DNA of 64,000 nt from Promethearchaeota archaeon. Its GTDB lineage: Archaea > Asgardarchaeota > Lokiarchaeia > Sigyniarchaeales > SOKP01. The stretch covers positions 256,001 through 320,000 of the forward strand of contig JAUVNS010000003.1 in NCBI GenBank assembly GCA_030599585.1, written 5' to 3'. Both the position numbers and the translations under genes were made by a program. The notes under the pieces are model-generated. The model saw nothing but the letters and a program-made list of their open reading frames with translations. It ran no database searches and was not told the origin of the DNA. Below, piece by piece: positions 1-13,842 of the stretch (the first letter of the stretch is position 1; every line of letters starts with the position of its first letter).

Positions 1-3000
1 TTAATTTCATTTAATACTAACTCTGCGCTTCTATAATATTCTAATGCTTTATCGTAATCGGCATGTTTGATATATACTTCAGCTTCGTCAAACAATTCAA
101 AAGCAGCTTCTTTGCGTTTCTCCAAATGTAGTTTAAGGTCTTCTTGCTTCTTAATTTTAATTTGTTTAACTCTCATTTGTTCTTCTTCGTATTTCATGGT
201 ATCAGCAATGGTCTGAAGAAAGTGTTTTTCTTTCTCTTGTTTTCTAATACCATATTCTAATTCTTGTTGTTTGGTTACATTGGCCTCCCGTTTTTTTTCT
301 TGGATTTTTATTATAGTATCTTTTATTATTTCAGTAGGAAACTGAATTTGAATTAAGATCAACTCTGCATCATAATACTTTTCTATAGATTCCTCATACT
401 TCCCTTCTTTTAATAGTTGTTCTGCTTTGTCCATTATGGAAAAAGCTTCCAGCTTTTTTGTCTCCATCAATTTTTTCAGATCTTCTCTTTTAAGAAGCTC
501 GATCTTCTTTGATAGCATTTTTTCCCTTTCTTTTTGAAAACTTTCTGTCACTTTTCTCTCAAATACTCTTTCTTCCTCTACTTGTTTTCGTAGTTTTTCT
601 TTTTCGAGTAATTTTTGGCGCTCTTTTTCGTCTCTTTTAAATTGCAGATTTCGACTTGACTCTTCTAATAATGAAATGTAGTTTCCCGTCCACCCTAACT
701 GTTTAAGTAAATTGAGTGCATTTTGATAAGCTTCAATGGCTTTATCATAATTCTCTTGTGCTAAAAAGATATCAGCGTCTTCAATGATCTTGAACGCTTC
801 TTGTTGTTTTAAAATACTCTGGGAGCTCAATTCCTTTTTTGTTTCTAAAATTGCCCTTTTTTTTTCGATTAATCTTTTTTCTCTTTCTCTTCGGATTTTA
901 AGATTATTAAGAAATTGCCTGTGTTCGGCATCTTCTTTGATTAATTGCTCGAACTCCCTTTGTTTCCTAATTTCTATTTCCTTCTTTTCGTTTTCGATTT
1001 TGTTAATCGTCTGGTTAATAAACACAATTTCTTCGATCCATTGAATTTGAGCGAAAATTTGATTTACATTTCTATAACTTTCAACTGCTAAATCGAATTC
1101 TCCTAATGAAAGATAATTTTGAGCTTCATCCAGGACTTTAAACGCTTCTTCCTTTTGTCTCTCTCTAAAATTAATTTCATTTTCGCGTTCTTTCTTGACT
1201 ATCTCTCTTTCTTCTAGTTTTTTTCTCTTACCTTTCATCTCTTTGATGATTTTTTCTTGAAATCCTCTATCCTCTCTTTCTTTGCTAATAAGAATTTCCA
1301 TATCTCTTTGTTTTTTGAGATAAGCATCCCGTTTTTTATTTTCGATCTCGATTATTGCATTCCCTACTCTTTCCATTTCACCATACCATTGAATTTCAGC
1401 AAAAATACCAGTTACCTGCTGGTAGAATTCAATCACTTTATCAAAATCGCCTTTCTCTAGATAGACTTGAGCATCTTCCAATATCTTAAAAGCCTCCATT
1501 TTTCTCTTCTCTCGATGTATCAATTCCGCTTTTTGATCTCTTAACAAGATTTTTTTGTCTTTTAATCTCTCTTTTTCTAATTGGAGCTGTTTTGATATCT
1601 GTTCCTGAAACTGTTGTTCAACCTTAAATTGCTCTATAGATTTCATCAAATCTTTTTGTTTTGTTAACAATTGTTCTCTTTTCCTATTTTCTAATTCTCT
1701 TATAGAATTTTCAATTAAATGTAATTCATCGTTCCATTGTATGCTTGCGAAGATATTTCCCGCTTCCTGATAAGCAGCTATTGCGTTATCTAACTCAGAT
1801 TTTCTTACGAAATTATCTGCTTCATCTAAAGCTTTATACGCGTCAAGTTTACGAGTTTCGCGTTCTTCTAATTCTTCTCTTTTTTCTTGTAGAACGACTT
1901 CTCTCTGCCTTATTTTTTCTCTTTCCTTTGCTAACTCTATTGATGTGAGCTGCTGAAACTCTATATCACTTTTTCTGCGTTGGTTTAATTTAGTTTGGTG
2001 TTCTAAATCTTTGTCAATTTTGTTTTCTTCTAACTTTTTAATACTTAAAATAGTCTCTTCAATTGTAGGAGCATGAGATTCCCAATCTGTCCCTAATTCC
2101 TTTAGATATCCTAATGCTTCCGTGTACCTATTAATAGCTTTGTTATAATCAGATTCTTCCCGTAGTATTCTATCAGCATCGGTTAAAATTGTAAACAACT
2201 TCTCTTCTTTCCTCAAATTTTCTTTTCTTTTTTGTTCGTATTCTAATCTTAACTTGTCCAGTTCTCTTGCGTTTTCAATAATTTCATCTTTTTCCTTAAA
2301 ATATATCGTATCTTGTAGGAGTTTTAGCTGGCTCTCCCGTTTTTGCCTCAAAATATTCTCTTCTTCTTTATTCGCCTGCTTAATTTCTATATTTTTAATA
2401 AAGTTGATAACTGGTTGAATGTAAGAATCCCATTCAATGGATTTAAACAATTCAATTGCTTTCTGAAATTTATTAACCGCTTGATCGTATTTCTTCTCTC
2501 TTTCCAATTTTTTACCAAAGTCCACTAAATTAAATGCTTCAATTTGTATTTTTTCTTCATCTCTATAGATATCTGTTCTTACCTCTTCGTACTCATCAGT
2601 TTGTTCTTTAGTAAATATTGGTTCTATTCGCTTTTGAGATCTAAATTGCTCAAACTCTTTTTTATCATTTTTTAATTTTTCAATAATTATGTTAATACTC
2701 TTAGTTTGGTCGTGCCATCCTATAGAATTCAATAAATTTTCGGCATTTTCGTAATTCTCAATTGCTTTATCGAAATTTCTATCGGATTCAAAAAATTTTG
2801 CATTATCGATAAACTCAAACGCATCCTTTTGTATTTCCTCCTCTCGCTGTTTCATAGCTTTAAATTTCTTTAATTCTTCTGCTTTTGCTGCACTTTTTTT
2901 AACGCCAAATGCGCTAACAACTTGTGGTTCGATTTCTTGACGAATATTAACTTGTTCTTGACCTTCCCCAATCTTGGTTTCAGTCACTGATTTATGGTGT

Positions 3001-3425
3001 TTTAACTTTTCTGATAATGTTATAAGTTTGCTTTGCAAATTACTTAATTGGGCTTCAGACCAACCTGTTTGAATTAGTAATTTGATTGCTGTATCATATT
3101 GCTCAATTGCATCTCCCAAAAATCCGTCTGTTTCTAATTTTTGAGCTCCATCCAACAAAGAAAAAGCTTGGTCTTGTAATTGCTCAAGTTGATTTTTCGC
3201 TTTCGCTTGATCATATATTATCTCTTGTTTTGCTAAATCTTTTAACTCTTCGATCCTGGAATAAATATCACTTATCTTATCCATCATAAAGCCGCTATTT
3301 TTAAGATAACTTGCTGCTAACTCATAACTCTCCACAGCTTTTTCTAAATTTTTTTCATTCTCAAATTTTTGAGCTAAATTAAGATACTTTAAAGCTTCTT
3401 GAGCAAGTTCTTCATTTCCCAACAT
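1..3425 (-). CDS. Giant alpha-helical repeat protein (>=1141 aa, C-terminus off-window): at least 11 MIT/TPR-like helical modules joined by E/K/R-rich helical linkers
   Basis: Absent from the ORF track because there is no stop in the window. Manual translation from ATG at 3425 (MLGNEELAQEALKYLNLAQKFENEKNLEKAVESYELAASYL...) stays open to the window edge. Repeated motif AFxxLxxAxxxxxxxxYxxAxxxYxxAxxIFxxIxW. Confidence 0.9.
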   Translation of the reverse strand, partial: MLGNEELAQEALKYLNLAQKFENEKNLEKAVESYELAASYLKNSGFMMDKISDIYSRIEELKDLAKQEIIYDQAKAKNQLEQLQDQAFSLLDGAQKLETDGFLGDAIEQYDTAIKLLIQTGWSEAQLSNLQSKLITLSEKLKHHKSVTETKIGEGQEQVNIRQEIEPQVVSAFGVKKSAAKAEELKKFKAMKQREEEIQKDAFEFIDNAKFFESDRNFDKAIENYENAENLLNSIGWHDQTKSINIIIEKLKNDKKEFEQFRSQKRIEPIFTKEQTDEYEEVRTDIYRDEEKIQIEAFNLVDFGKKLEREKKYDQAVNKFQKAIELFKSIEWDSYIQPVINFIKNIEIKQANKEEENILRQKRESQLKLLQDTIYFKEKDEIIENARELDKLRLEYEQKRKENLRKEEKLFTILTDADRILREESDYNKAINRYTEALGYLKELGTDWESHAPTIEETILSIKKLEENKIDKDLEHQTKLNQRRKSDIEFQQLTSIELAKEREKIRQREVVLQEKREELEERETRKLDAYKALDEADNFVRKSELDNAIAAYQEAGNIFASIQWNDELHLIENSIRELENRKREQLLTKQKDLMKSIEQFKVEQQFQEQISKQLQLEKERLKDKKILLRDQKAELIHREKRKMEAFKILEDAQVYLEKGDFDKVIEFYQQVTGIFAEIQWYGEMERVGNAIIEIENKKRDAYLKKQRDMEILISKEREDRGFQEKIIKEMKGKRKKLEEREIVKKERENEINFRERQKEEAFKVLDEAQNYLSLGEFDLAVESYRNVNQIFAQIQWIEEIVFINQTINKIENEKKEIEIRKQREFEQLIKEDAEHRQFLNNLKIRREREKRLIEKKRAILETKKELSSQSILKQQEAFKIIEDADIFLAQENYDKAIEAYQNALNLLKQLGWTGNYISLLEESSRNLQFKRDEKERQKLLEKEKLRKQVEEERVFERKVTESFQKEREKMLSKKIELLKREDLKKLMETKKLEAFSIMDKAEQLLKEGKYEESIEKYYDAELILIQIQFPTEIIKDTIIKIQEKKREANVTKQQELEYGIRKQEKEKHFLQTIADTMKYEEEQMRVKQIKIKKQEDLKLHLEKRKEAAFELFDEAEVYIKHADYDKALEYYRSAELVLNEI

Positions 3426-3606
3426 CTTTATCTAAAACCCTCTTTTAATATTTCTTTAAAAGTATAAGTGAAGCGTGAATTTATTGATTGTTCCTACAAT
3501 AAATTAAACCGATTTATTAATTAAACTTTTTATATTTACATGATTAATTTTATATTAAAAACTAACCTTTAAACTCATTTTCAAAAAATTAAGAAGAGGA
3601 ACATTC

Positions 3607-5571
3607 GTGAAAAGTAAATTTAAGATTACCATCGATATTGAACCGATCTCGAGAAGGCTCTTCTACACCGAAGATGAAACATTATACGAATTACTGATCA
3701 ATTCAGGTATCCATGTGCGGTCCCTTTGTGGTGGTAAGGGAACATGTGGAAAGTGCAAAATACTGGTTCAAGAAGGAATGAATTTTTTAAACACTCCAAC
3801 AAACTCTGAAATGGAATATCTTACGCAGTTGGAGATTAGAGAAAAGTGGCGATTGGCTTGTCAATGTAGAGTAAAAAAAACCCAAATTCAGTCAATTAAA
3901 ACTCATCAACCGCCCCAGATAAGGATATTTCTTCCTAAAGATTTACTATCAGAAGATTTTAAGATATTAACTTCGGGAAAATCTAAAATAATAAACCTTA
4001 ACCCGAACGTAAAGAAAATTTATGTTGAAATTAATAAACCAAATTTAGAAAACCCAGTTCCAGATATTGAAAGAATTATATCCTCACTTTCGTCAATCAA
4101 GGATAATAAAGGGATTTATAGCGATCTCTCGTTTGAAGTCGACACTATAAGAAAAATACCCCTAATTTTAAGAGAAGACCAACATCGTATTTCGTTAACA
4201 GTATACAATAATAAAGAGGTAATAGATTGCGAAGCAGGTAATAAAACCGAAGATTGTTTCGGAATCGCATTTGACATTGGAACTACAACTATTGTTGGGT
4301 ATTTAATCAATTTGCACAATGGAAAAATATATTCAATTGCATCAGCTCTTAATCCACAGACAGCCTACGGAGAAGATGTTATTTCGCGTATAACATACAT
4401 TAAAGACAATCCCGCAGGGCTTGGAAAATTAAATTCTATTCTGATAGAATCTTTGAACTCAATAATAAAAGAAACTAGTGCTATTGCTAAAGTCTTAACT
4501 AGTCAAATATATGAGGCAACAATCGTGGGAAATTCGGTTATGCATCACATATTCCTCAATATAAATCCTACATATATTGGTTTAAGTCCTTATGTGCCTG
4601 CACTGAAGAGTGACTTAAACGTGAAGGCTAAAGATGTAAACCTTGAGATTTCAAAAAGCGGTTATGTTTATGTATTACCGGTAATTGCTGGATTCGTTGG
4701 AGCTGATACAATGGGTGTAATTATTTCATCAGAGATTGATAAAGAACAAGAATTAACATTAGCAATTGATGTTGGAACTAATGGTGAATTGGTTATTGGT
4801 AATAAGGATACTCTTTTTACAGGATCTTGTGCAGCAGGATCAGCCTTAGAAGGTGCTCACATTCAACACGGCATGCGAGCTGCAGCAGGAGCTATTGACA
4901 CCCTAAAAATTGATCCGGGTGATTTTAGTGTTGAATACACCACGATTAATAACAATAAACCAATAGGCTTCTGTGGTTCTGGTATTATTGATGCAGTAGC
5001 CGAAATGTTAAGAGCAAAACTGCTTACCAGAAGCGGTAACTTTAATAAAGAATTCATAGACAACGAGCGTATAATAAAAGAAGAAAAAAACCTTAAATTT
5101 ATCTTAGTAAATAAAGATGACACCCCAATTAAGAGACACATAACGATTTCACAGAATGATGTTAGAGAATTACAAATGGCAAAAGGGGCGTTCTTCTCTG
5201 GAGCTCGCTTGATTTTAAACCACTTAAATCGTGTAAACAATTCTGACCTAAAAATTCAACAAATTCTTCTAGCGGGAGCGTTTGGAAATTACATCAACAA
5301 AAATAACGCGAAATTTATTGGGATGATTCCCGATATACCCGACGATAAGCTATTTCAAATTGGAAACGCAGCAGGAGTCGGAGCGCAAAATTGTTTATTA
5401 AACGTAGATTTAAGAAAAAAAGCTCGAAAATTACAGGAAAAAATACATTACGTTGAAATTGCAGTTGAAAAAGATTTCCAAAAAGAATTTGCTTCAGCGA
5501 TGTATTTTCCTCATTTAAACTTGAATCTATTTCCAAGTCTTAAAGAGTATGCACATATCCCAAAAAGGTAA
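3607..5571 (+). CDS. ASKHA-domain (DUF4445) protein with N-terminal 2Fe-2S ferredoxin; RACo/AcsV-type reductive activator of corrinoid proteins
   Basis: CGGKGTCGKC...LAC 2Fe-2S motif; DIGTTT, NPQxxYGEDVISRI, GFVGAD, DVGTNGE, AGAFG and GNAAG motifs. Confidence 0.92.
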   Translation: MKSKFKITIDIEPISRRLFYTEDETLYELLINSGIHVRSLCGGKGTCGKCKILVQEGMNFLNTPTNSEMEYLTQLEIREKWRLACQCRVKKTQIQSIKTHQPPQIRIFLPKDLLSEDFKILTSGKSKIINLNPNVKKIYVEINKPNLENPVPDIERIISSLSSIKDNKGIYSDLSFEVDTIRKIPLILREDQHRISLTVYNNKEVIDCEAGNKTEDCFGIAFDIGTTTIVGYLINLHNGKIYSIASALNPQTAYGEDVISRITYIKDNPAGLGKLNSILIESLNSIIKETSAIAKVLTSQIYEATIVGNSVMHHIFLNINPTYIGLSPYVPALKSDLNVKAKDVNLEISKSGYVYVLPVIAGFVGADTMGVIISSEIDKEQELTLAIDVGTNGELVIGNKDTLFTGSCAAGSALEGAHIQHGMRAAAGAIDTLKIDPGDFSVEYTTINNNKPIGFCGSGIIDAVAEMLRAKLLTRSGNFNKEFIDNERIIKEEKNLKFILVNKDDTPIKRHITISQNDVRELQMAKGAFFSGARLILNHLNRVNNSDLKIQQILLAGAFGNYINKNNAKFIGMIPDIPDDKLFQIGNAAGVGAQNCLLNVDLRKKARKLQEKIHYVEIAVEKDFQKEFASAMYFPHLNLNLFPSLKEYAHIPKR

Positions 5572-5873: not shown

Positions 5874-6401
5874 ATGTCAATTTTTAAATTAAAAGTTTTA
5901 CTTACGGGTGCTGCTGCTGTTGGAAAGACGAGTCTTGTTCAGAGATTTATCAAAAACCGATTTGCGGCGAACTACAAATTAACAGTCGGAGTAGATATTC
6001 TCACCAAAGATGTTGAGTTTAGGCAAGGCGAAGTAGCGACATTGTCGATTTGGGATATTGGCGGACAGCAACGATTCGAATTTATCCGTTCAACATTCTA
6101 CAAGGGAGCTGCTGGCGCACTATTAGTGTTTGATTTAACAAGAGAACAAACTTACATCGAAACAAGGAAATGGCTAACGGAAATACGGCAATTTAGCAAC
6201 CAAAACATCCCATTTGTATTAATCGGGAATAAAGTAGATTTAGTTGAAGATGTCGGAGAAGTAATAGATAGAGAAGAAGCTCGGGCTTTTGCTGAGGGTG
6301 AAGGAAGCATTTACATTGAGACATCCGCAAAAACAGGTATTAATGTTGACGACGCCTTTACTGAACTTACACGTAGAATTGTTGAGTCAAGAACTCAATA
6401 A
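5874..6401 (+). CDS. Rab-like small GTPase (Ras superfamily)
   Basis: G1 GAAAVGKTS, G2 TVGVD, G3 WDIGGQ, G4 NKVD, G5 ETSAK; RabF-like segments; no C-terminal Cys. Confidence 0.95.
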   Translation: MSIFKLKVLLTGAAAVGKTSLVQRFIKNRFAANYKLTVGVDILTKDVEFRQGEVATLSIWDIGGQQRFEFIRSTFYKGAAGALLVFDLTREQTYIETRKWLTEIRQFSNQNIPFVLIGNKVDLVEDVGEVIDREEARAFAEGEGSIYIETSAKTGINVDDAFTELTRRIVESRTQ

Positions 6402-8053: not shown

Positions 8054-10105
8054 TTATCTTCCCAGTAATTTTTCAGTTTCTTTAATTTGTTCATTAATAT
8101 TTTTTTCAATCGTAGATAACTTATTCTTCTTTTCCTCAAGTTCATCTCCAGTAATTTCCCCTGTAAGTTCCTTCATGTCAAAATCTAACGACATTTTGGT
8201 AATGCTCGCTTTCTTTATTTTTAGATCCATCAAAGATTTTTCTAAACCTGCCTTTTGCGCTGCCTCGCTTACTACGGCTTTTGTTGGCACATCAGCTGTA
8301 GTTTCATGGGGCGCAACATCAGGTTGAGTCTTTACTATAGATTCTTTAGGAGGTTTGGGAGGTGTTACTTTTGGTGGAGGTTTAATTAAAGTGGTGGGGT
8401 TCACGGGCATAGGAGGTGGAATGGGTTCTTTTTGTATATCTGACGTCTTAGGTGTTGGAATTTTAGGCGTTTTCTGAATTTTGGGTGGGGTGTTCTTCAC
8501 AGGTGGTACGAATCCCGAAGGCATTTTTTTACTTACTAATTCTGTTGGTGAAATTGGTACGGGTTTTTTTGATACTGTAGGATTAGAGACGTGAGCGAAT
8601 GGTGATGTCTTCAGTTTATTTTTAGCATCTTTAGGTACTACTGTTACACTTTTTGGCCTTTGTTTCACCATAAAATCTGCGGGGTTTAAATTCAATCCTA
8701 CAGCTGGTTTATCGATTTTAGGCTGAATAAGCATCTCAGGTTCATTTAGTTTTGTGATTACTGTTTTTTTTTCTTCTATTGGTTTTGCAGGTTCTTTCAA
8801 TTCTGATTTTTTCTCAGCTACTTCTACTTTTTTAGGAATAAATTGTGAAGTGGCAGCAGGTATTTTTGGCTTCACTAACCCCTCAACTTTAGGGCTATCT
8901 GGTAAATCAGATTTTTTAAGTTTCGGTGGAGCTTCTATTGGTTTAGGAGGTGCTTCTATCGTTTTCGGTGGAGTTCCTGGTGGTTTAGGAGGTGCTTCTA
9001 TCGGTTTCGGTGGAGTTCCTGGTGGTTTAGGCGGTTCTTGAACTGGTTTTGTTTGAGGTGTTCTAGCTGCTTGAATCATGACCTTAATTTTTTGTGATTT
9101 TTCATAAAATTCCTTCCCAAGGGAATCATCTCCTAATTCAATGCATAGATCGCTTATTTGCTCAAAGTACATTGCAGCTTCCTCAAAATTTGTATTTTCT
9201 AAAGCTTTAACAGCTTTTTCTGTTAAAATATCTCTCTCTAACAATGGCTTCAATAGAGGAGAAACTTCTGCGCTCATTTCAAGTATATCAGCAATGATAG
9301 TTATCATTTTATCTCGATTTCCTGAATCCTTTGCAACCATAGAATATGTTTTTAATCCTAATATCTTCTCTATTTGTTCTGGTTTTAAAGCATCGTCTAA
9401 ATCTTGTTTATTACCAATTACGGATGTATGTGCTTGAGCGGCTTGCTCTTTTATGAGTTCTAGGAAGAATTTACTTTTTTCTATATTTTCTAAGGTAGAA
9501 TCTGTTATCAATAAAACAGCATCGCTTCCTTTAATGAAATTATTCCACAAATAGCTGAACTGTTCTTGTCCAGCAAAATCCCACAAATGAAAATGTAGTT
9601 TTCCTATTTTGATTGTAGCGATGTCACCCGTTATGGTAGGAATGTGTTCCATAGGAATTTCTTCAGCTTTGATTAGACGAGTTATTGTAGTTTTCCCTAC
9701 GCCAGAAAATCCTACTAACGATATCTTTGGTCTTAAATTCCTATGAATTGAATCGATTGTAGGGTCAAAAATCTCGAAGGTTTTCTCGTCAAACTTGTGT
9801 TGGAGTATGTCTTCAAATAAATTCAGAAACTCTTTTTTACATTTTATTAATTCTTTTTTAATATTCTCGAAATTATCTGTTAATCCAGTAACAAATAAAA
9901 ACATTAACTCTAAATCTTTTTCCGTAATGTACGATATTCTATATTTGTAATAATCGTGAAATTCTACATTCTTACCTCCTTTGGCGAAAGCATCTTGCAT
10001 TAAATCACTTACTAATGATTCAAAAGCTGCTTTCTTAAGTGCTTTTCCAAAATGACGATAATAGAGTAGTTTACCGCCTCTATAAATGTAAACTTGCCTT
10101 AGAAT
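8054..10105 (-). CDS. Longin-domain / Arf-like small GTPase / helical bundle / proline-rich / C-terminal coiled-coil fusion protein (~683 aa; probable ATT start upstream of the track start at 10000)
   Basis: Frame is open from 10108/10105 (ATT ATT CTA AGG CAA..., LRQVYIYRGGKLLYYRHFG, the first longin beta-hairpin), bounded by an in-frame TGA at 10114-10112 and preceded by AAGGTGAG. GTPase motifs GFSGVGKTT, PTI, WDFAGQ, NKQDL; PPK repeats; C-terminal heptads. Confidence 0.88.
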   Translation of the reverse strand: MLRQVYIYRGGKLLYYRHFGKALKKAAFESLVSDLMQDAFAKGGKNVEFHDYYKYRISYITEKDLELMFLFVTGLTDNFENIKKELIKCKKEFLNLFEDILQHKFDEKTFEIFDPTIDSIHRNLRPKISLVGFSGVGKTTITRLIKAEEIPMEHIPTITGDIATIKIGKLHFHLWDFAGQEQFSYLWNNFIKGSDAVLLITDSTLENIEKSKFFLELIKEQAAQAHTSVIGNKQDLDDALKPEQIEKILGLKTYSMVAKDSGNRDKMITIIADILEMSAEVSPLLKPLLERDILTEKAVKALENTNFEEAAMYFEQISDLCIELGDDSLGKEFYEKSQKIKVMIQAARTPQTKPVQEPPKPPGTPPKPIEAPPKPPGTPPKTIEAPPKPIEAPPKLKKSDLPDSPKVEGLVKPKIPAATSQFIPKKVEVAEKKSELKEPAKPIEEKKTVITKLNEPEMLIQPKIDKPAVGLNLNPADFMVKQRPKSVTVVPKDAKNKLKTSPFAHVSNPTVSKKPVPISPTELVSKKMPSGFVPPVKNTPPKIQKTPKIPTPKTSDIQKEPIPPPMPVNPTTLIKPPPKVTPPKPPKESIVKTQPDVAPHETTADVPTKAVVSEAAQKAGLEKSLMDLKIKKASITKMSLDFDMKELTGEITGDELEEKKNKLSTIEKNINEQIKETEKLLGR
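8921..9036. repeat. Coding tandem repeat of 21-bp units with a 42-bp higher-order repeat, encoding PPKPPGT/PPKPIEA
   Basis: tttcggtggagttcctggtggtttagg occurs twice and ggtttaggaggtgcttctatcg twice; translation EPPKPPGTPPKPIEAPPKPPGTPPKTIEAPPKPIEAPPK. Confidence 0.9.
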
Positions 10106-10151: not shown

Positions 10152-10646
10152 TTATTGCATTGCTATGAATTTTACCAAATCTTTTATTATTTTATATTTT
10201 TTATCGCTACCTGTCTTTTCTTTGAAGGTATCTTCAATTTTTTTAATTTCTTTTGAAAAATCGAATAATGAAAACTCAGTAATTTCTCGTTCTTTATACT
10301 TCTTGTTTAATTTCTTCAAGAACACAGATATGGAGGGCATATACTTAGCTAAATTCATATTTAAACCTAACTTGGAGATCAAAATTAATTCATCACTAAA
10401 TGTAAACAAGTAATTATACTCTTGAGCTTCTAATGCAAATGAATTTATCTTACTTAGTTTTAGTTCATTCGCAATGTCTTTAGAGTTAGAGATAAGTGAG
10501 AGAATCTTGTGGGGGATAACTTTTCCTTTAAAAAACTCTTTTATGTTTGAGGCTAATACAATCCCATATATATTCGCTATTGCGCATTCAGAATTTAGCT
10601 CTGTTTTCAGCTGTGAGATGATTTCATCGTAGTTAATTTGTTTCAT
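10152..10646 (-). CDS. Roadblock/LC7 (MglB-like) domain protein
   Basis: Helix, then ECAIANIYGIVLAS hairpin, helix, three beta strands, helix; lies directly upstream of and co-oriented with the GTPase fusion. Confidence 0.7.
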   Translation of the reverse strand: MKQINYDEIISQLKTELNSECAIANIYGIVLASNIKEFFKGKVIPHKILSLISNSKDIANELKLSKINSFALEAQEYNYLFTFSDELILISKLGLNMNLAKYMPSISVFLKKLNKKYKEREITEFSLFDFSKEIKKIEDTFKEKTGSDKKYKIIKDLVKFIAMQ

Positions 10647-10757: not shown

Positions 10758-11546
10758 TTGAAAATATATAAACACCATTTTTTAGAACAAGAATCTGATG
10801 TTACTATAATCTCTGAATCAAAAATTGCTATAAGAGAAGCAAAAAAAAGTCTTGTAAATAATCGTATAATCTTAGAAAAATACCTAAAAAAAAATAATAA
10901 GTTTCTCACATCTTTTTTGCCAATAAGGATAACCACCGAGTTTGAAATTATCAATTTAATGAGTGAAGCCTCAGTATTATGTGATGTTGGACCTATGGCT
11001 GCTGTAGCGGGTGCGTTTGCTGATATTATGTTAAATAAGATGAAATTGGACGATGATCCCGAATATCTTTCTGCAAAGATTGCGTTAGTTGAAAATGGAG
11101 GAGAAATTGCAGTTGACTCTGAGGAAGATATGAAAATCGCCTTATTTGCAGGGTACAACGAGTTAAACTTAAATATTGGTTTTTTAATTGAAAAAAAAAC
11201 CGGGCTTCTTGGAATTGGAACGAGTTCTGCAACCATAGGGCACGCTATTAGTTTAGGTCAAGCAGATGCCGTAACCATATTTGCCAGGGATGCAACTTTA
11301 GCCGATGCTGCTGCTACAAGAATAGCAAATTTAGTTAAAGGGGTTGATGTTGAGAAATCCATAAAAAACGCGTTAGATGCTGTAGAAGATATAGAAGGTG
11401 TTTATGGGGCTTTAATATCTCGAGAGAATAAAGTTGGTCAGGTAGGAAAATTACCAAAGTTTTTTAAAATTGAAGGAAATAAAAATCTCGTGTTAAAAGA
11501 TAAATTTGATGGCGTATTCCCTGGAAAATACGACATTCTTAAATAA
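10758..11546 (+). CDS. UPF0280 / ApbE-like family protein
   Basis: VGPMAAVAGA, VENGGEIA, GIGTSSATIGHAISLGQADAVT, ADAAAT motifs. Confidence 0.9.
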   Translation: MKIYKHHFLEQESDVTIISESKIAIREAKKSLVNNRIILEKYLKKNNKFLTSFLPIRITTEFEIINLMSEASVLCDVGPMAAVAGAFADIMLNKMKLDDDPEYLSAKIALVENGGEIAVDSEEDMKIALFAGYNELNLNIGFLIEKKTGLLGIGTSSATIGHAISLGQADAVTIFARDATLADAAATRIANLVKGVDVEKSIKNALDAVEDIEGVYGALISRENKVGQVGKLPKFFKIEGNKNLVLKDKFDGVFPGKYDILK

Positions 11547-13842
11547 CCCAATAATATGGAAGACTTTCACCGTTTTCTTTTTTAACTGAGAAAATCCTGT
11601 TTAAGTAATTTAATCTGTAATAGCTTTCGTATTGTTCTTCAGTTAGTTCCCCGAAGAATTCCATTTCACCGGTTGTTAAATAATTTTTAGTTAAAAGGAT
11701 GAACACATCCATATTTTTGTGTTCTTTCAACTCCTGTAAAATATTCGTTCCATTATCGTAGAAATGATTATCAGGTACAATTAAGATATTATTGAAGGTG
11801 ATAAAGTCCTGAGTTGTCGCGATAGGAAGAGAACTGTTTTTCTCTTCGTATGGATAATCAAAATAGAGAAAGACGGGATTCCACCCAAATTCTAATACTA
11901 ACAAATTTCTATCTTCAGAGTTTTGTAAATACCATTGCACTGCGGTTAATTCGTTGCTATTAATACTAAAAAAGTCTATAGATGAGAAAAGCTCTAAATA
12001 TGAAGCTGTAGCAGAAAAACTCACAAAGAAAAGAAAAAATAGTTTAATTTGTAATTTTTTAATCTTCCCTGTTTTTATCAATTTATACACATACGAAAGA
12101 AACCCAATTGCGATAATGGGTGAGGCAATGTAAAACAATCTTGAGATGAAACTTAATGAGCCTCGAAGCACATCAGAAAGAAGACCTGCTAAAATTATAA
12201 TGACAAAAGACAATAACCATAAGAATAACGGTTTTCCTTTGGCTTTATTTTGAAATATTACGAGTCCCCATATTGCAAATATGATTATGATAATGACTTC
12301 GAATCCTACAAAAATGGTAATTAAATTTAGGTTCAACCATAATAGGTTAGCAATAAAAAATCCCACAGTAAAGACTAAAGTCACTACGAAAACTAAGGGG
12401 ATAAAATACTTCTCAATTATTGTATAAACTTTTAATTTTTTTCCTATTAAAATTAAATTAAAACGTCCTTTTTCAAACTTGATTTGAGCTCTTAAGAAGA
12501 AGATTAAAATTCCTCCTATAATTGTAATCGAAATCCCCCCTAATAACAGGTAAATCCCGGGTAAAGTGAAAACGGAGTTGAATACTCTCAGATGCCCAGT
12601 ACTTATGTTCGATATGAATAAAATTAGAAAAACAACGAAGAGTATAACACATAGCATAAAATCGAAACCACGTTTAAAGTCTCTAACTAAGTATATAAGG
12701 TAAATCCAAGTAAAAGAGACAAGAAATATTAATGCTATTAGAGAGTGGGAGAGATATAGCGCAATAAAAACTATAGAGACATATAGGTAAGTGAAAGGTA
12801 AATTAGATAAAATGCTTTTCCAAGAAGGTCTCTCTACTTTAATAAAATTTCTTAGTCTAACATATAACAGAAAAAAAATTGTTAATCCTTGAATAAACAC
12901 TATACTGGAAGGCCAATATTGAAATGTTAAATTAATGAAACCTAATGTAGTGATTAACAAGATGAAAATGCCAAATATCGCTAGAGATTTATTTGAAAAT
13001 ACTCTCATTATGATGTTATACACGATTAGAGATGTTAAAGGGATAGTAAACAATACAAAGCTATTAGGGATCAATAATAACTCTATACCTGAAAATAGAT
13101 GAAACACCGCACCAATTATATGAAAACCCATTGCTCCGAAATATTCGTTAAGTGGTAAAGAATTAGCATTTACTATTATTCTAATAATTAAAATATGGTA
13201 CCAAGGATCAGTTCCACCAAAAATTTCTACATTAGCAAGTAAAGCTGTGATAAGCAAAACTGCAAAGATAATTAGCAATATTCCGTTTAAGGAGAGTTTA
13301 TTTTTGATGTATTTAAAAACCTGAAAATCTTTATAGCTATCTAATGAATAGTTTTTCTTAGATATTGACGAATTAGGATTATCGATCTTGCTATTCTTAT
13401 TCAATATTACGCTTATGATCAATAGACCGAAATAGAAGCTAATTAATAGTGAAAAAAAGTAATCTATATTGAGAGCAAACCCTACACTATTTCCAAAATA
13501 TCCTGTAATAATGTAAAAACTCAAATTGATAACTATAGTTAAACAAATCTTCTCTAATGTATTAAATTTGATACTTTTATAGATTGTAAAGAAAATGGGA
13601 TACGATGGTAAAAATAAAATAATGAAAATTGAAGAAATCATAAAACAAAAGCCAAAAAATGAACCAAATAATATATTACCTTCAAAATTAAGAAGAATTT
13701 CAATTCCTATTAACTTTAATAATAAAAAGACTACAGAAATAAGTGATACGGCAAATAGATAGCAATTAAAGTGCTTACGTACGTGTAGAAGTGATTTTAT
13801 CAATCCCAACTTAAAATTGTACATAATCAAGAAGTTAATCAT
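11539..13842 (-). CDS. Large polytopic membrane protein, putative GT-C-fold glycosyltransferase
   Basis: Many TM helices; GGTDPWYH motif in an external loop after a TM helix; soluble C-terminal domain; lies at the edge of the glycan locus. Confidence 0.65.
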   Translation of the reverse strand: MINFLIMYNFKLGLIKSLLHVRKHFNCYLFAVSLISVVFLLLKLIGIEILLNFEGNILFGSFFGFCFMISSIFIILFLPSYPIFFTIYKSIKFNTLEKICLTIVINLSFYIITGYFGNSVGFALNIDYFFSLLISFYFGLLIISVILNKNSKIDNPNSSISKKNYSLDSYKDFQVFKYIKNKLSLNGILLIIFAVLLITALLANVEIFGGTDPWYHILIIRIIVNANSLPLNEYFGAMGFHIIGAVFHLFSGIELLLIPNSFVLFTIPLTSLIVYNIIMRVFSNKSLAIFGIFILLITTLGFINLTFQYWPSSIVFIQGLTIFFLLYVRLRNFIKVERPSWKSILSNLPFTYLYVSIVFIALYLSHSLIALIFLVSFTWIYLIYLVRDFKRGFDFMLCVILFVVFLILFISNISTGHLRVFNSVFTLPGIYLLLGGISITIIGGILIFFLRAQIKFEKGRFNLILIGKKLKVYTIIEKYFIPLVFVVTLVFTVGFFIANLLWLNLNLITIFVGFEVIIIIIFAIWGLVIFQNKAKGKPLFLWLLSFVIIILAGLLSDVLRGSLSFISRLFYIASPIIAIGFLSYVYKLIKTGKIKKLQIKLFFLFFVSFSATASYLELFSSIDFFSINSNELTAVQWYLQNSEDRNLLVLEFGWNPVFLYFDYPYEEKNSSLPIATTQDFITFNNILIVPDNHFYDNGTNILQELKEHKNMDVFILLTKNYLTTGEMEFFGELTEEQYESYYRLNYLNRIFSVKKENGESLPYYWVI

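Follow-up and report, generated by a model that had tools for sequence, protein, structure and literature searches.

In spectrin all helices are about 30 residues long and no free linker separates the bundles, while in the rulers nebulin and tropomyosin each unit has a set number of residues that suits a partner with a repeat of its own; ER/K single alpha-helices (SAHs) are familiar as spacers. Spectrin provides a precedent for a rod of linked three-helix bundles, as do the staphylococcal adhesins Ebh and Embp, which are giant rods of many helical-bundle repeats (PMC7587433). The gene described here lies at the left end of a 64,000-nucleotide stretch of DNA (the window) from a Promethearchaeota archaeon of the Lokiarchaeia, corresponding to positions 256001-320000 of a 370-kb contig (JAUVNS010000003.1, here C34, of assembly GCA_030599585.1). 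Its product carries 14 modules, or beads, whose fold is itself known and is predicted to resemble that of the MIT domain. A literature search covering Asgard MIT, spectrin-like, giant or coiled-coil proteins, or the family member DSAG12_01611, returned nothing on this family, and no description was found of 9-25 MIT-like bundles set on continuous helices with a fixed 116-residue period; the search did not cover all journals.

Our preferred reading, which we hold about as readily as we doubt, is that the gene encodes a cytoplasmic head-rod-tail scaffold specific to the Lokiarchaeales, in which MIT-type beads would be joined by continuous helices, the length of the unit would be under selection, and the beads would stand in register with a periodic or extended partner.

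Spacing and length of the repeat units

Over window positions 3 to 3425 the minus-strand frame is open for 1141 codons and has 0 stops, against 48-123 stops in each of the other five frames over the same DNA. Traced leftwards, the gene runs 1.5 kb beyond the edge of the window and is complete as an open reading frame (ORF) of 1641 residues with no internal stop (C34:254500-259425, or window -1500 to 3425). An earlier note on this DNA, made from the letters of the window, had recorded a minus-strand ORF of at least 1141 residues; re-translation finds no internal stops, and extension of the contig yields the complete gene with all of its 14 modules. The difference in stop codons, together with conservation across more than 100 clusters, rules out a pseudo-ORF.

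The modules were located with a profile built from five of them and searched over the whole protein, spacing being measured at the Trp column. Ten of the 14 lie wholly inside the window and an eleventh nearly so, which makes the earlier count of at least 11 a fair one. Six TGG codons, at positions 2430, 2082, 1734, 1386, 1038 and 690 (residues 332, 448, 564, 680, 796 and 912), are separated by exactly 348 nt, all six positions being as the note had read them, and in three modules Phe or Tyr stands in place of Trp. The complete series of spacings is 76, 115, 95, 116, 116, 116, 116, 116, 117, 114, 114, 117 and 116. The exact 116-residue period claimed in the note is therefore exact for five consecutive intervals, while along the rest of the rod it is near-exact (114-117). 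The head begins with modules 1 and 2 in tandem, 76 residues apart, followed by a third bead; the two linkers that come after this tandem pair are Pro/Gly-containing, variable in length and tolerant of insertions and deletions (indels), and the head is the best-conserved part of the protein in distant relatives. Module 14 is followed by a helical, Lys-rich tail of about 135 residues (25% Lys).

Whole-protein searches recovered orthologs from 20 of the 24 other genomes of the genus, at 39-89% identity, and those that are full-length measure 1640-1650 residues. From module 4 on, the spacings (116 five times, then 117, 114, 114, 117 and 116) are identical in every ortholog fetched, even at 39-46% identity. 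In an alignment of 13 full-length orthologs (46-89% identity), indels occur only at residues ~155-160 and ~271-275 and at the C-terminal end, and there are 0 across the 1365 residues from ~276 to 1641. The linkers of orthologs are merely 39-61% identical, yet the rod is indel-free. As a control, enzymes encoded next to the rod gene were compared by their tblastn alignment lengths; at 44-63% identity they have 2-9 gap positions for every ~520-650 residues. Gaps at this frequency would amount to several, or up to a few dozen, over the rod, and 0 are observed. Indels arise and are tolerated where the structure allows, since the head linkers carry them.

Among relatives, length changes by whole blocks only, giving proteins of 14, 17-18, 20, 21 or 25 modules. 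A long form of 2331-2340 residues and 20 modules repeats a six-unit block with the same internal spacings. The 120 representatives of database clusters (37-94% identity) fall into classes of 14, 18, 20 and 21 modules, and their core spacings deviate in only three cases (95, 111 and 113). For a wider search, a profile of the whole 116-residue unit was run against 1.8 billion representatives; it matched 1461 proteins at E <= 0.001, 109 of them at E <= 1e-30, with up to 25 units, and brought in the 17- and 25-module forms. Across 146 representatives of this superfamily, 116 is the sharp mode of the spacing (254 gaps), with minor classes at 114, 117, 127, about 76, and 153. That these allowed spacings differ by whole helical turns is a weak signal in non-independent data, matched in 75 of 2000 jittered sets, and no claim is based on it. 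The 116 period is also kept by distant relatives (23-38% identity) from other families within the order: one of 1288 residues has spacings of 129, 129, 116 six times, 75 and 75, one of 891 residues ends with 117, 118 and 116, and one of 593 residues ends with 117 and 116.

The invariance of the spacing in orthologs and its modal value over the superfamily support the view that spacing is under constraint. This agrees with the suggestion of the earlier note that length itself is selected, in that spacing is invariant in orthologs though the sequence diverges; the period persists in Asgard homologs, distant relatives included, and the variable spacing that would have spoken against the suggestion was not seen.

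The units of a single protein are also strongly divergent, as had been noted, with identities of 24% in modules and 17% in linkers, and Tandem Repeats Finder detects no 348-nt DNA repeat in the gene. A recent tandem duplication as the origin of the period was rejected on these grounds. Each bead has kept its own identity, with no concerted evolution, since the orthologous module of another species is far closer than the neighboring module of the same protein; judged from these identities, the repeats are old.

A mechanism that would account for a conserved unit length can be proposed. Helix 3 of each bead would continue unbroken through a linker of ~55 residues into helix 1 of the next, much as in spectrin, and the result would be a stiff rod presenting one bead about every 11 nm. 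Selection would hold the number of residues per unit, while the protein could change length by whole units, and the beads would thereby be kept in register with something periodic or extended. Registration against something else is suggested by three features together, namely that the unit length is strict, that it is kept after block duplication, and that it is reused in distant paralogs. In a parallel in-register homodimer any change affects both chains alike, and such a dimer would not in itself demand units of equal or conserved length. The partner could be the rod itself, in staggered or antiparallel copies, or else proteins arranged as a polymer or array and docking on the beads through short helical motifs, for which the MIM-type tails of ESCRT-III proteins are the leading candidates.

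Predicted structure of the bead and the rod

A four-unit segment (residues 519-1000) modeled by AlphaFold2 (AF2) with 17 orthologs gave a mean predicted local distance difference test (pLDDT) score of 79.7. In the recurring pattern a turn joins helix 1 to a 17-residue helix 2, and a second turn leads to a long helix (91-94 residues) in which helix 3, the linker and the following module's helix 1 run together. Such helices occupy positions 50-140, 163-256 and 397-481 of the 482 modeled residues, so that the helix is predicted to be continuous from bundle to bundle. The model has a single low-confidence break (pLDDT <50), at model residues 327-349, which may mark a hinge (Table 1). The architecture supported by this model is one of beads on a rod, with isolated three-helix bundles on continuous helices, as the earlier note had supposed. 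From helix geometry (1.5 Å per residue minus the overlap with helix 1), rather than from measurement on coordinates, we estimate an advance of ~11 nm per unit; an 11-unit rod would then be roughly 120 nm long, to which head and tail would add, for a total of roughly 120-170 nm. When the four-unit model was searched with Foldseek, it returned only weak helical-repeat matches (E 0.04 or worse, TM about 0.1), which are uninformative, and a search of the ESM Atlas with a three-unit segment (residues 635-990) gave scores of at most 0.86, the only named clusters being bacterial TPR (tetratricopeptide repeat) proteins.

The single module, modeled with 124 aligned modules, is predicted with higher confidence (pLDDT 89.6) as an antiparallel three-helix bundle of the kind and size of an MIT domain (about 70-80 residues), with helices at 2-23, 26-42 and 46-80. 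Its top Foldseek matches are almost all MIT domains, including those of CdvC/Vps4, katanin p60, MITD1, NRBF2 and VPS4B, with probabilities of 0.9-1.0 and TM 0.55-0.66 at E values of only 0.08-0.5. Against Pfam, MIT (PF04212) is the best family for the whole protein (E 3.4e-20; 7 stretches that together score 72.3 bits), and TPR families come next. A profile search of the PDB aligned module positions 8-57 with VPS4A MIT 7-57 (E 0.0036), and the module profile also matches the MIT domains of Sulfolobus CdvC, calpain-7 and Atg38; these matches, like that to VPS4A, are weak but longer than the TPR match. An hhalign comparison with a profile of Lokiarchaeal Vps4 MIT domains reached 85.6% probability over 31 columns, covering the end of helix 1 and helix 2. 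Structural comparison by VIA-align gave the single module Z scores of 9-10 for MIT domains mixed with TPR ends, other three-helix units and many unrelated helical proteins, a plectin plakin fragment among them; because such scores are common to many unrelated three-helix arrangements, this method is unable to separate MIT from other bundles. The modules, beside which the note had set the MIT domain, are MIT-like by predicted fold, whereas the similarity in sequence stops at the TPR-like hairpin, and of the comparisons made with single and multiple repeats only the single module proved MIT-like, the multi-unit matches being weak. In our reading the bead would be one TPR-like hairpin with a capping third helix, which is structurally what an MIT domain is.

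The TPR resemblance deserves attention in its own right, as public orthologs are annotated as hypothetical or TPR-repeat proteins and some bear the JGI label 'TPR repeat protein'. Pfam reports TPR_2 at 45.8 bits and TPR_1 at 40.7 bits, along with TPR_12 and related families; the 34-residue helix-turn-helix consensus is present, and the match of the module profile to consensus TPR proteins reaches E 5e-37 by summation. An ordinary TPR-repeat protein forming a compact solenoid, of chaperone or adaptor type, would explain these matches, but the match in each module is a 22-residue core, the hairpins stand singly 116 residues apart rather than as adjacent 34-mers, and AF2 predicts isolated bundles joined by 90-residue helices, all of which make this explanation very improbable indeed. 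The compact solenoid itself was rejected, as the hairpins lie 76-117 residues apart and the predicted structure does not contain one.

The linkers, of ~55 residues, consist to 48% of E, K and R and to 27% of bulky hydrophobics (V/I/L/M/F/W/Y). They share an invariant aromatic at Trp+42 and a hydrophobic stripe at +46, +50, +57, +64 and +71. The earlier note had described them as E/K/R/Q-rich helices; a reading of them as spacers of the ER/K single-helix type fails, since more than a quarter of their residues are bulky hydrophobics with conserved positions. As for coiled-coil pairing, a one-per-heptad stripe is visible at Trp+50, +57, +64 and +71, but when the spectra of ten linkers are added up, the signal between 3.3 and 3.8 residues is equaled in 81 of 500 shuffles and is not significant.

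These features bear on whether the beads bind anything at all. The bundles could instead only stiffen and punctuate a spectrin-like skeleton, binding nothing, in which staggered or antiparallel rods would self-assemble beneath the membrane or inside cell protrusions, as a lattice or a filament, the period serving self-registration. A continuous helix between bundles in the AF2 model, a strict period with whole-unit changes in length, and the presence of a paralogous second rod in the same genomes would all fit such a skeleton, and the sparse hydrophobic stripe and invariant aromatic at Trp+42 could mediate lateral contacts; average bead surfaces are, moreover, no more conserved than linkers. 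The absence of a significant heptad signal argues against it, as does the failure to detect any membrane- or actin-binding domain or any match to Pfam spectrin (PF00435) at E up to 1. Conserved polar surfaces, which look more like binding sites, are module-specific, lying for example on helix 3 of module 7 (seven invariant polar residues) and on helix 2 of modules 11 and 13, and module 4 too has a conserved surface; the registers of modules 5 and 13 are shifted, making their surface-conservation values less reliable. On balance we regard a purely self-assembling skeleton as a minority possibility, albeit one to be taken seriously.

Neighboring genes, relatives and candidate partners

The features of the locus are collected in Table 1. 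Ahead of the rod gene the sequence, read by eye, shows a promoter-like stretch rich in A/T and a GAGGG, ~12 nt before the ATG, and outside the window oligo-T runs follow its stop codon; because of these runs and the promoter-like flank, the rod gene is suggested to have its own transcript.

Table 1. Features of the rod gene and its surroundings, in window positions unless a contig or locus handle is given
Feature	Position	Strand	Remarks
Rod gene, window part	1..3425	-	residues 1-1141 of 1641; ATG start at 3425
Head	2556..3425	-	residues 1-290; modules 1-3 at 3234-3413, 3006-3185, 2661-2840
Rod	1..2555	-	from residue 291; modules 4-10 at 2376-2555, 2028-2207, 1680-1859, 1332-1511, 984-1163, 636-815, 285-464
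Module 11	starts at 122	-	rod goes on beyond the window through module 14
Exact-period block (116 residues / 348 nt)	690..2432	-	bounded by the Trp codons of modules 4 to 9
Possible hinge, linker between modules 8 and 9	825..893	-	residues ~845-867, contains SSQS; helix break in AF2 model
Divergent intergenic region	3426..3606	.	between rod gene and RACo-type gene
ThiF-type E1 (526 aa), HAD hydrolase (205 aa), ferredoxin-like (290 aa), UQ_con E2 (169 aa)	L002:8406-12204 (window -5594 to -1796)	-	downstream of rod gene, same strand
RACo-type gene	3607-5571	+	upstream of rod gene, divergent; followed by Ras-family GTPase, aspartate kinase and longin/Arf-like GTPase
Ras-family GTPase	5874-6401	+	175 aa
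Longin/Arf-like GTPase	8054-10000	-	648 aa; Arf/Roc-like G domain
ORF	10152-10646	-	164 aa; no Pfam match at E 0.001 or better
ORF	11539-13842	-	767 aa; no Pfam match at E 0.001 or better
Vps4 and ESCRT-III genes	C22:66288-68347		outside the window; Vps4 (406-codon frame, MIT 52 bits) divergently adjoins the ESCRT-III gene (C22:67718-68347)
Second ESCRT-III gene	C40:330050-330766		

Genes for E1, HAD and E2 proteins are found near the rod gene in two other genera as well. A 7-module relative in another family has an E1 gene (53% identical), a RACo gene and a RagA/Arf-like GTPase gene nearby, with a subtilase gene between the E1 gene and the relative. No ubiquitin-like gene was seen within the E1-E2 stretch of the present locus. 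At their C-termini the two ESCRT-III proteins of the genome have helices that are Leu-rich and MIM1-like. For Asgard Vps4, isothermal titration calorimetry has shown MIT-MIM binding (PMC7240154), and ESCRT and ubiquitin systems are linked in Asgard genomes (PMC10936438).

These observations, with the MIT domain as best structural match and best Pfam family and an E1 gene near the rod genes of different families, speak for the multivalent ESCRT adaptor raised in the earlier note, taken here to mean that every bead is a functional MIT domain binding the MIM tail of an ESCRT-III protein, so that the rod would bundle, measure or recruit polymers, possibly with the adjacent ubiquitin E1 and E2. We nevertheless consider a multivalent adaptor of this kind unlikely. 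Sequence similarity to MIT ends after helix 2; the modules are not equivalent, module 9 being poorly conserved; the gene lies outside the Vps4/ESCRT-III locus, and synteny within one order is weak; and no such protein is described in the passages searched of a survey of archaeal ESCRT systems.

The nearby GTPase genes raise a different question, whether the rod is a golgin-like tether that captures membranes or vesicles under the control of the Ras-like and longin-Arf-like GTPases. Both GTPase genes lie within a few kb of the rod gene and are conserved beside the RACo gene in another genus, one GTPase gene accompanies the 7-module relative as described above, and the length of the protein is rod-like. 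Asgard genomes are so rich in small GTPases, however, that such proximity is expected by chance. The RACo gene separates the GTPase genes from the rod gene, an aspartate-kinase gene lies between the two, and they belong to other transcripts. The Pfam search detects no GRIP, GRAB or other known GTPase-binding domain, and golgins are dimeric heptad coiled coils whereas the rod linkers give no heptad signal. A tether of this type is accordingly quite improbable.

For the scaffold of MIT-type beads in register with a partner, several points must be counted on the other side. The scarcity of small indels is partly a general property of these helical rods: across five matched genomes only 3 small indels are internal to the paralogous rod described below, whereas the core of the 1641-residue family, the extreme case among these rods, has 0. 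AF2 is inclined to draw long straight helices from charged helical sequence. Single modules score 17.7-24.6 bits or nothing against the Pfam MIT gathering cut-off of 30, and for most modules Pfam MIT aligns columns 2-37 of its 66, that is, the TPR-like hairpin only; three-helix arrangements are common, and the VIA-align Z of 9-10 is shared with many unrelated helical proteins. The canonical ESCRT locus is on another contig than the rod gene. Averaged over modules, bead surfaces evolve about as fast as linkers, and since the conserved patches are not the same from one module to the next, the beads are unlikely to form a uniform array with identical sites. These surface differences likewise argue against 14 equivalent binding sites. 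The best-supported statement is that the protein would be a length-defined scaffold or spacer with position-specific beads.

A bolder form of this idea, which we think rather unlikely, is that the protein is a new Asgard cytoskeletal ruler. Its beads would stand in register on ESCRT-III or Lokiactin filaments, or on staggered copies of the rod itself, and its genus-specific length, about 100-280 nm for 9 to 25 units, would determine some dimension of the cell, for instance how wide a protrusion or neck is. If true, the archaea closest to eukaryotes would possess a functional analog of spectrin or nebulin, and it would be made of the MIT bundle with which eukaryotes read ESCRT-III.

Members of this protein family were detected in the Lokiarchaeales only. 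The unit profile has a match in 40 of 40 sampled genomes of the host's taxonomic family and in 3 of 3 of a second family; at E <= 1e-8 it has 0 matches in the 157 genomes that represent 25 further families of the phylum. Named members are all 'hypothetical proteins' of Promethearchaeota or Lokiarchaeota. Module number is characteristic of the genus, with lengths of about 1078, 1643-1671, 2071, 2125-2130 and 2927 residues.

Other rods and fragments accompany the family. The same genome encodes a second, paralogous giant rod of 1616 residues (C40:168733-173586, minus strand; locus L069:733-5580). Its modules, about 12 in number, are MIT/TPR-like but belong to another subtype, and the spacing between them decreases from 134 to 116; its orthologs within the genus range from 1221 to 1825 residues, in contrast to the fixed length of the present family. 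Two small relatives lie outside the window, one of 453 residues with 4 modules of the same kind (C34:178121-179482, plus strand) and one of 458 residues that joins an unrelated N-terminal part to 2 modules (C32:16951-18354, plus strand). In one genome the ortholog (G019:C15:33344-38261, locus L018) has in-frame TGA and TAA stops that leave frames of 1284 and 370 codons, and it may be a pseudogene or an assembly error. Whole-protein search found no ortholog of the 1641-residue family in two genomes of the genus (G010 and G011, 86% and 100% complete), where the paralogous rod is unusually long (1754 and 1825 residues, respectively); this could be coincidence or compensation.

Among the close relatives of the archaeon from which eukaryotes arose, the Lokiarchaeia have been studied best. 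For the question of how they build their long protrusions and remodel membranes the rod family offers a concrete, testable candidate, comprising very large proteins that are predicted to form rods of about 100-300 nm and to be made of the fold by which eukaryotic cells recognize ESCRT-III. Since one member, DSAG12_01611, is present in the cultured Promethearchaeum syntrophicum, work on localization and interaction is feasible. Even if the link to ESCRT fails, a fast-evolving helical linker of strict length provides a natural example of selection on spacing and not on sequence.

Comparison with known systems

A comparison of the rod protein with described helical-bundle proteins shows both close likenesses and marked disparities. 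In the MIT domain about 60-80 residues fold into a bundle of three helices, the first two of them arranged as a TPR-like hairpin, as is predicted for the bead, and tandem MIT pairs such as those of Vta1/LIP5, calpain-7 and Atg1 recall rod modules 1 and 2 at 76 residues, with Vta1/LIP5 among the VIA-align matches. In contrast to these proteins, which hold one or two copies, the rods possess 14-25, helix 3 is predicted to become a connector of ~90 residues, and there is no attached ATPase, protease or kinase domain. The hairpin has the TPR (PF00515/PF07719) consensus core G-D-[FY]-D-x-A-I-x-x-Y-x-x-A, but TPR proteins stack adjacent 34-residue repeats into a superhelix, whereas the hairpins of the rod are solitary, 116 residues apart, and each has a third helix.

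The rods of spectrin, alpha-actinin, dystrophin and plakins resemble the predicted architecture, as they too consist of three-helix bundles with a helix continuous between units and a fixed unit length. Unlike spectrin, the archaeal protein would combine a short bundle with ~55 residues of exposed helix; it has no sequence relationship to spectrin and no actin-binding or PH domain. Ebh and Embp differ further, being bacterial, extracellular, cell-wall-anchored adhesins that are unrelated in sequence and have no TPR/MIT-like hairpin. Finally, the rod protein shares charged helical spacers with SAH proteins, from which its linkers differ in their richness in bulky hydrophobics at conserved positions, and shares with nebulin and tropomyosin the idea of a fixed unit length.

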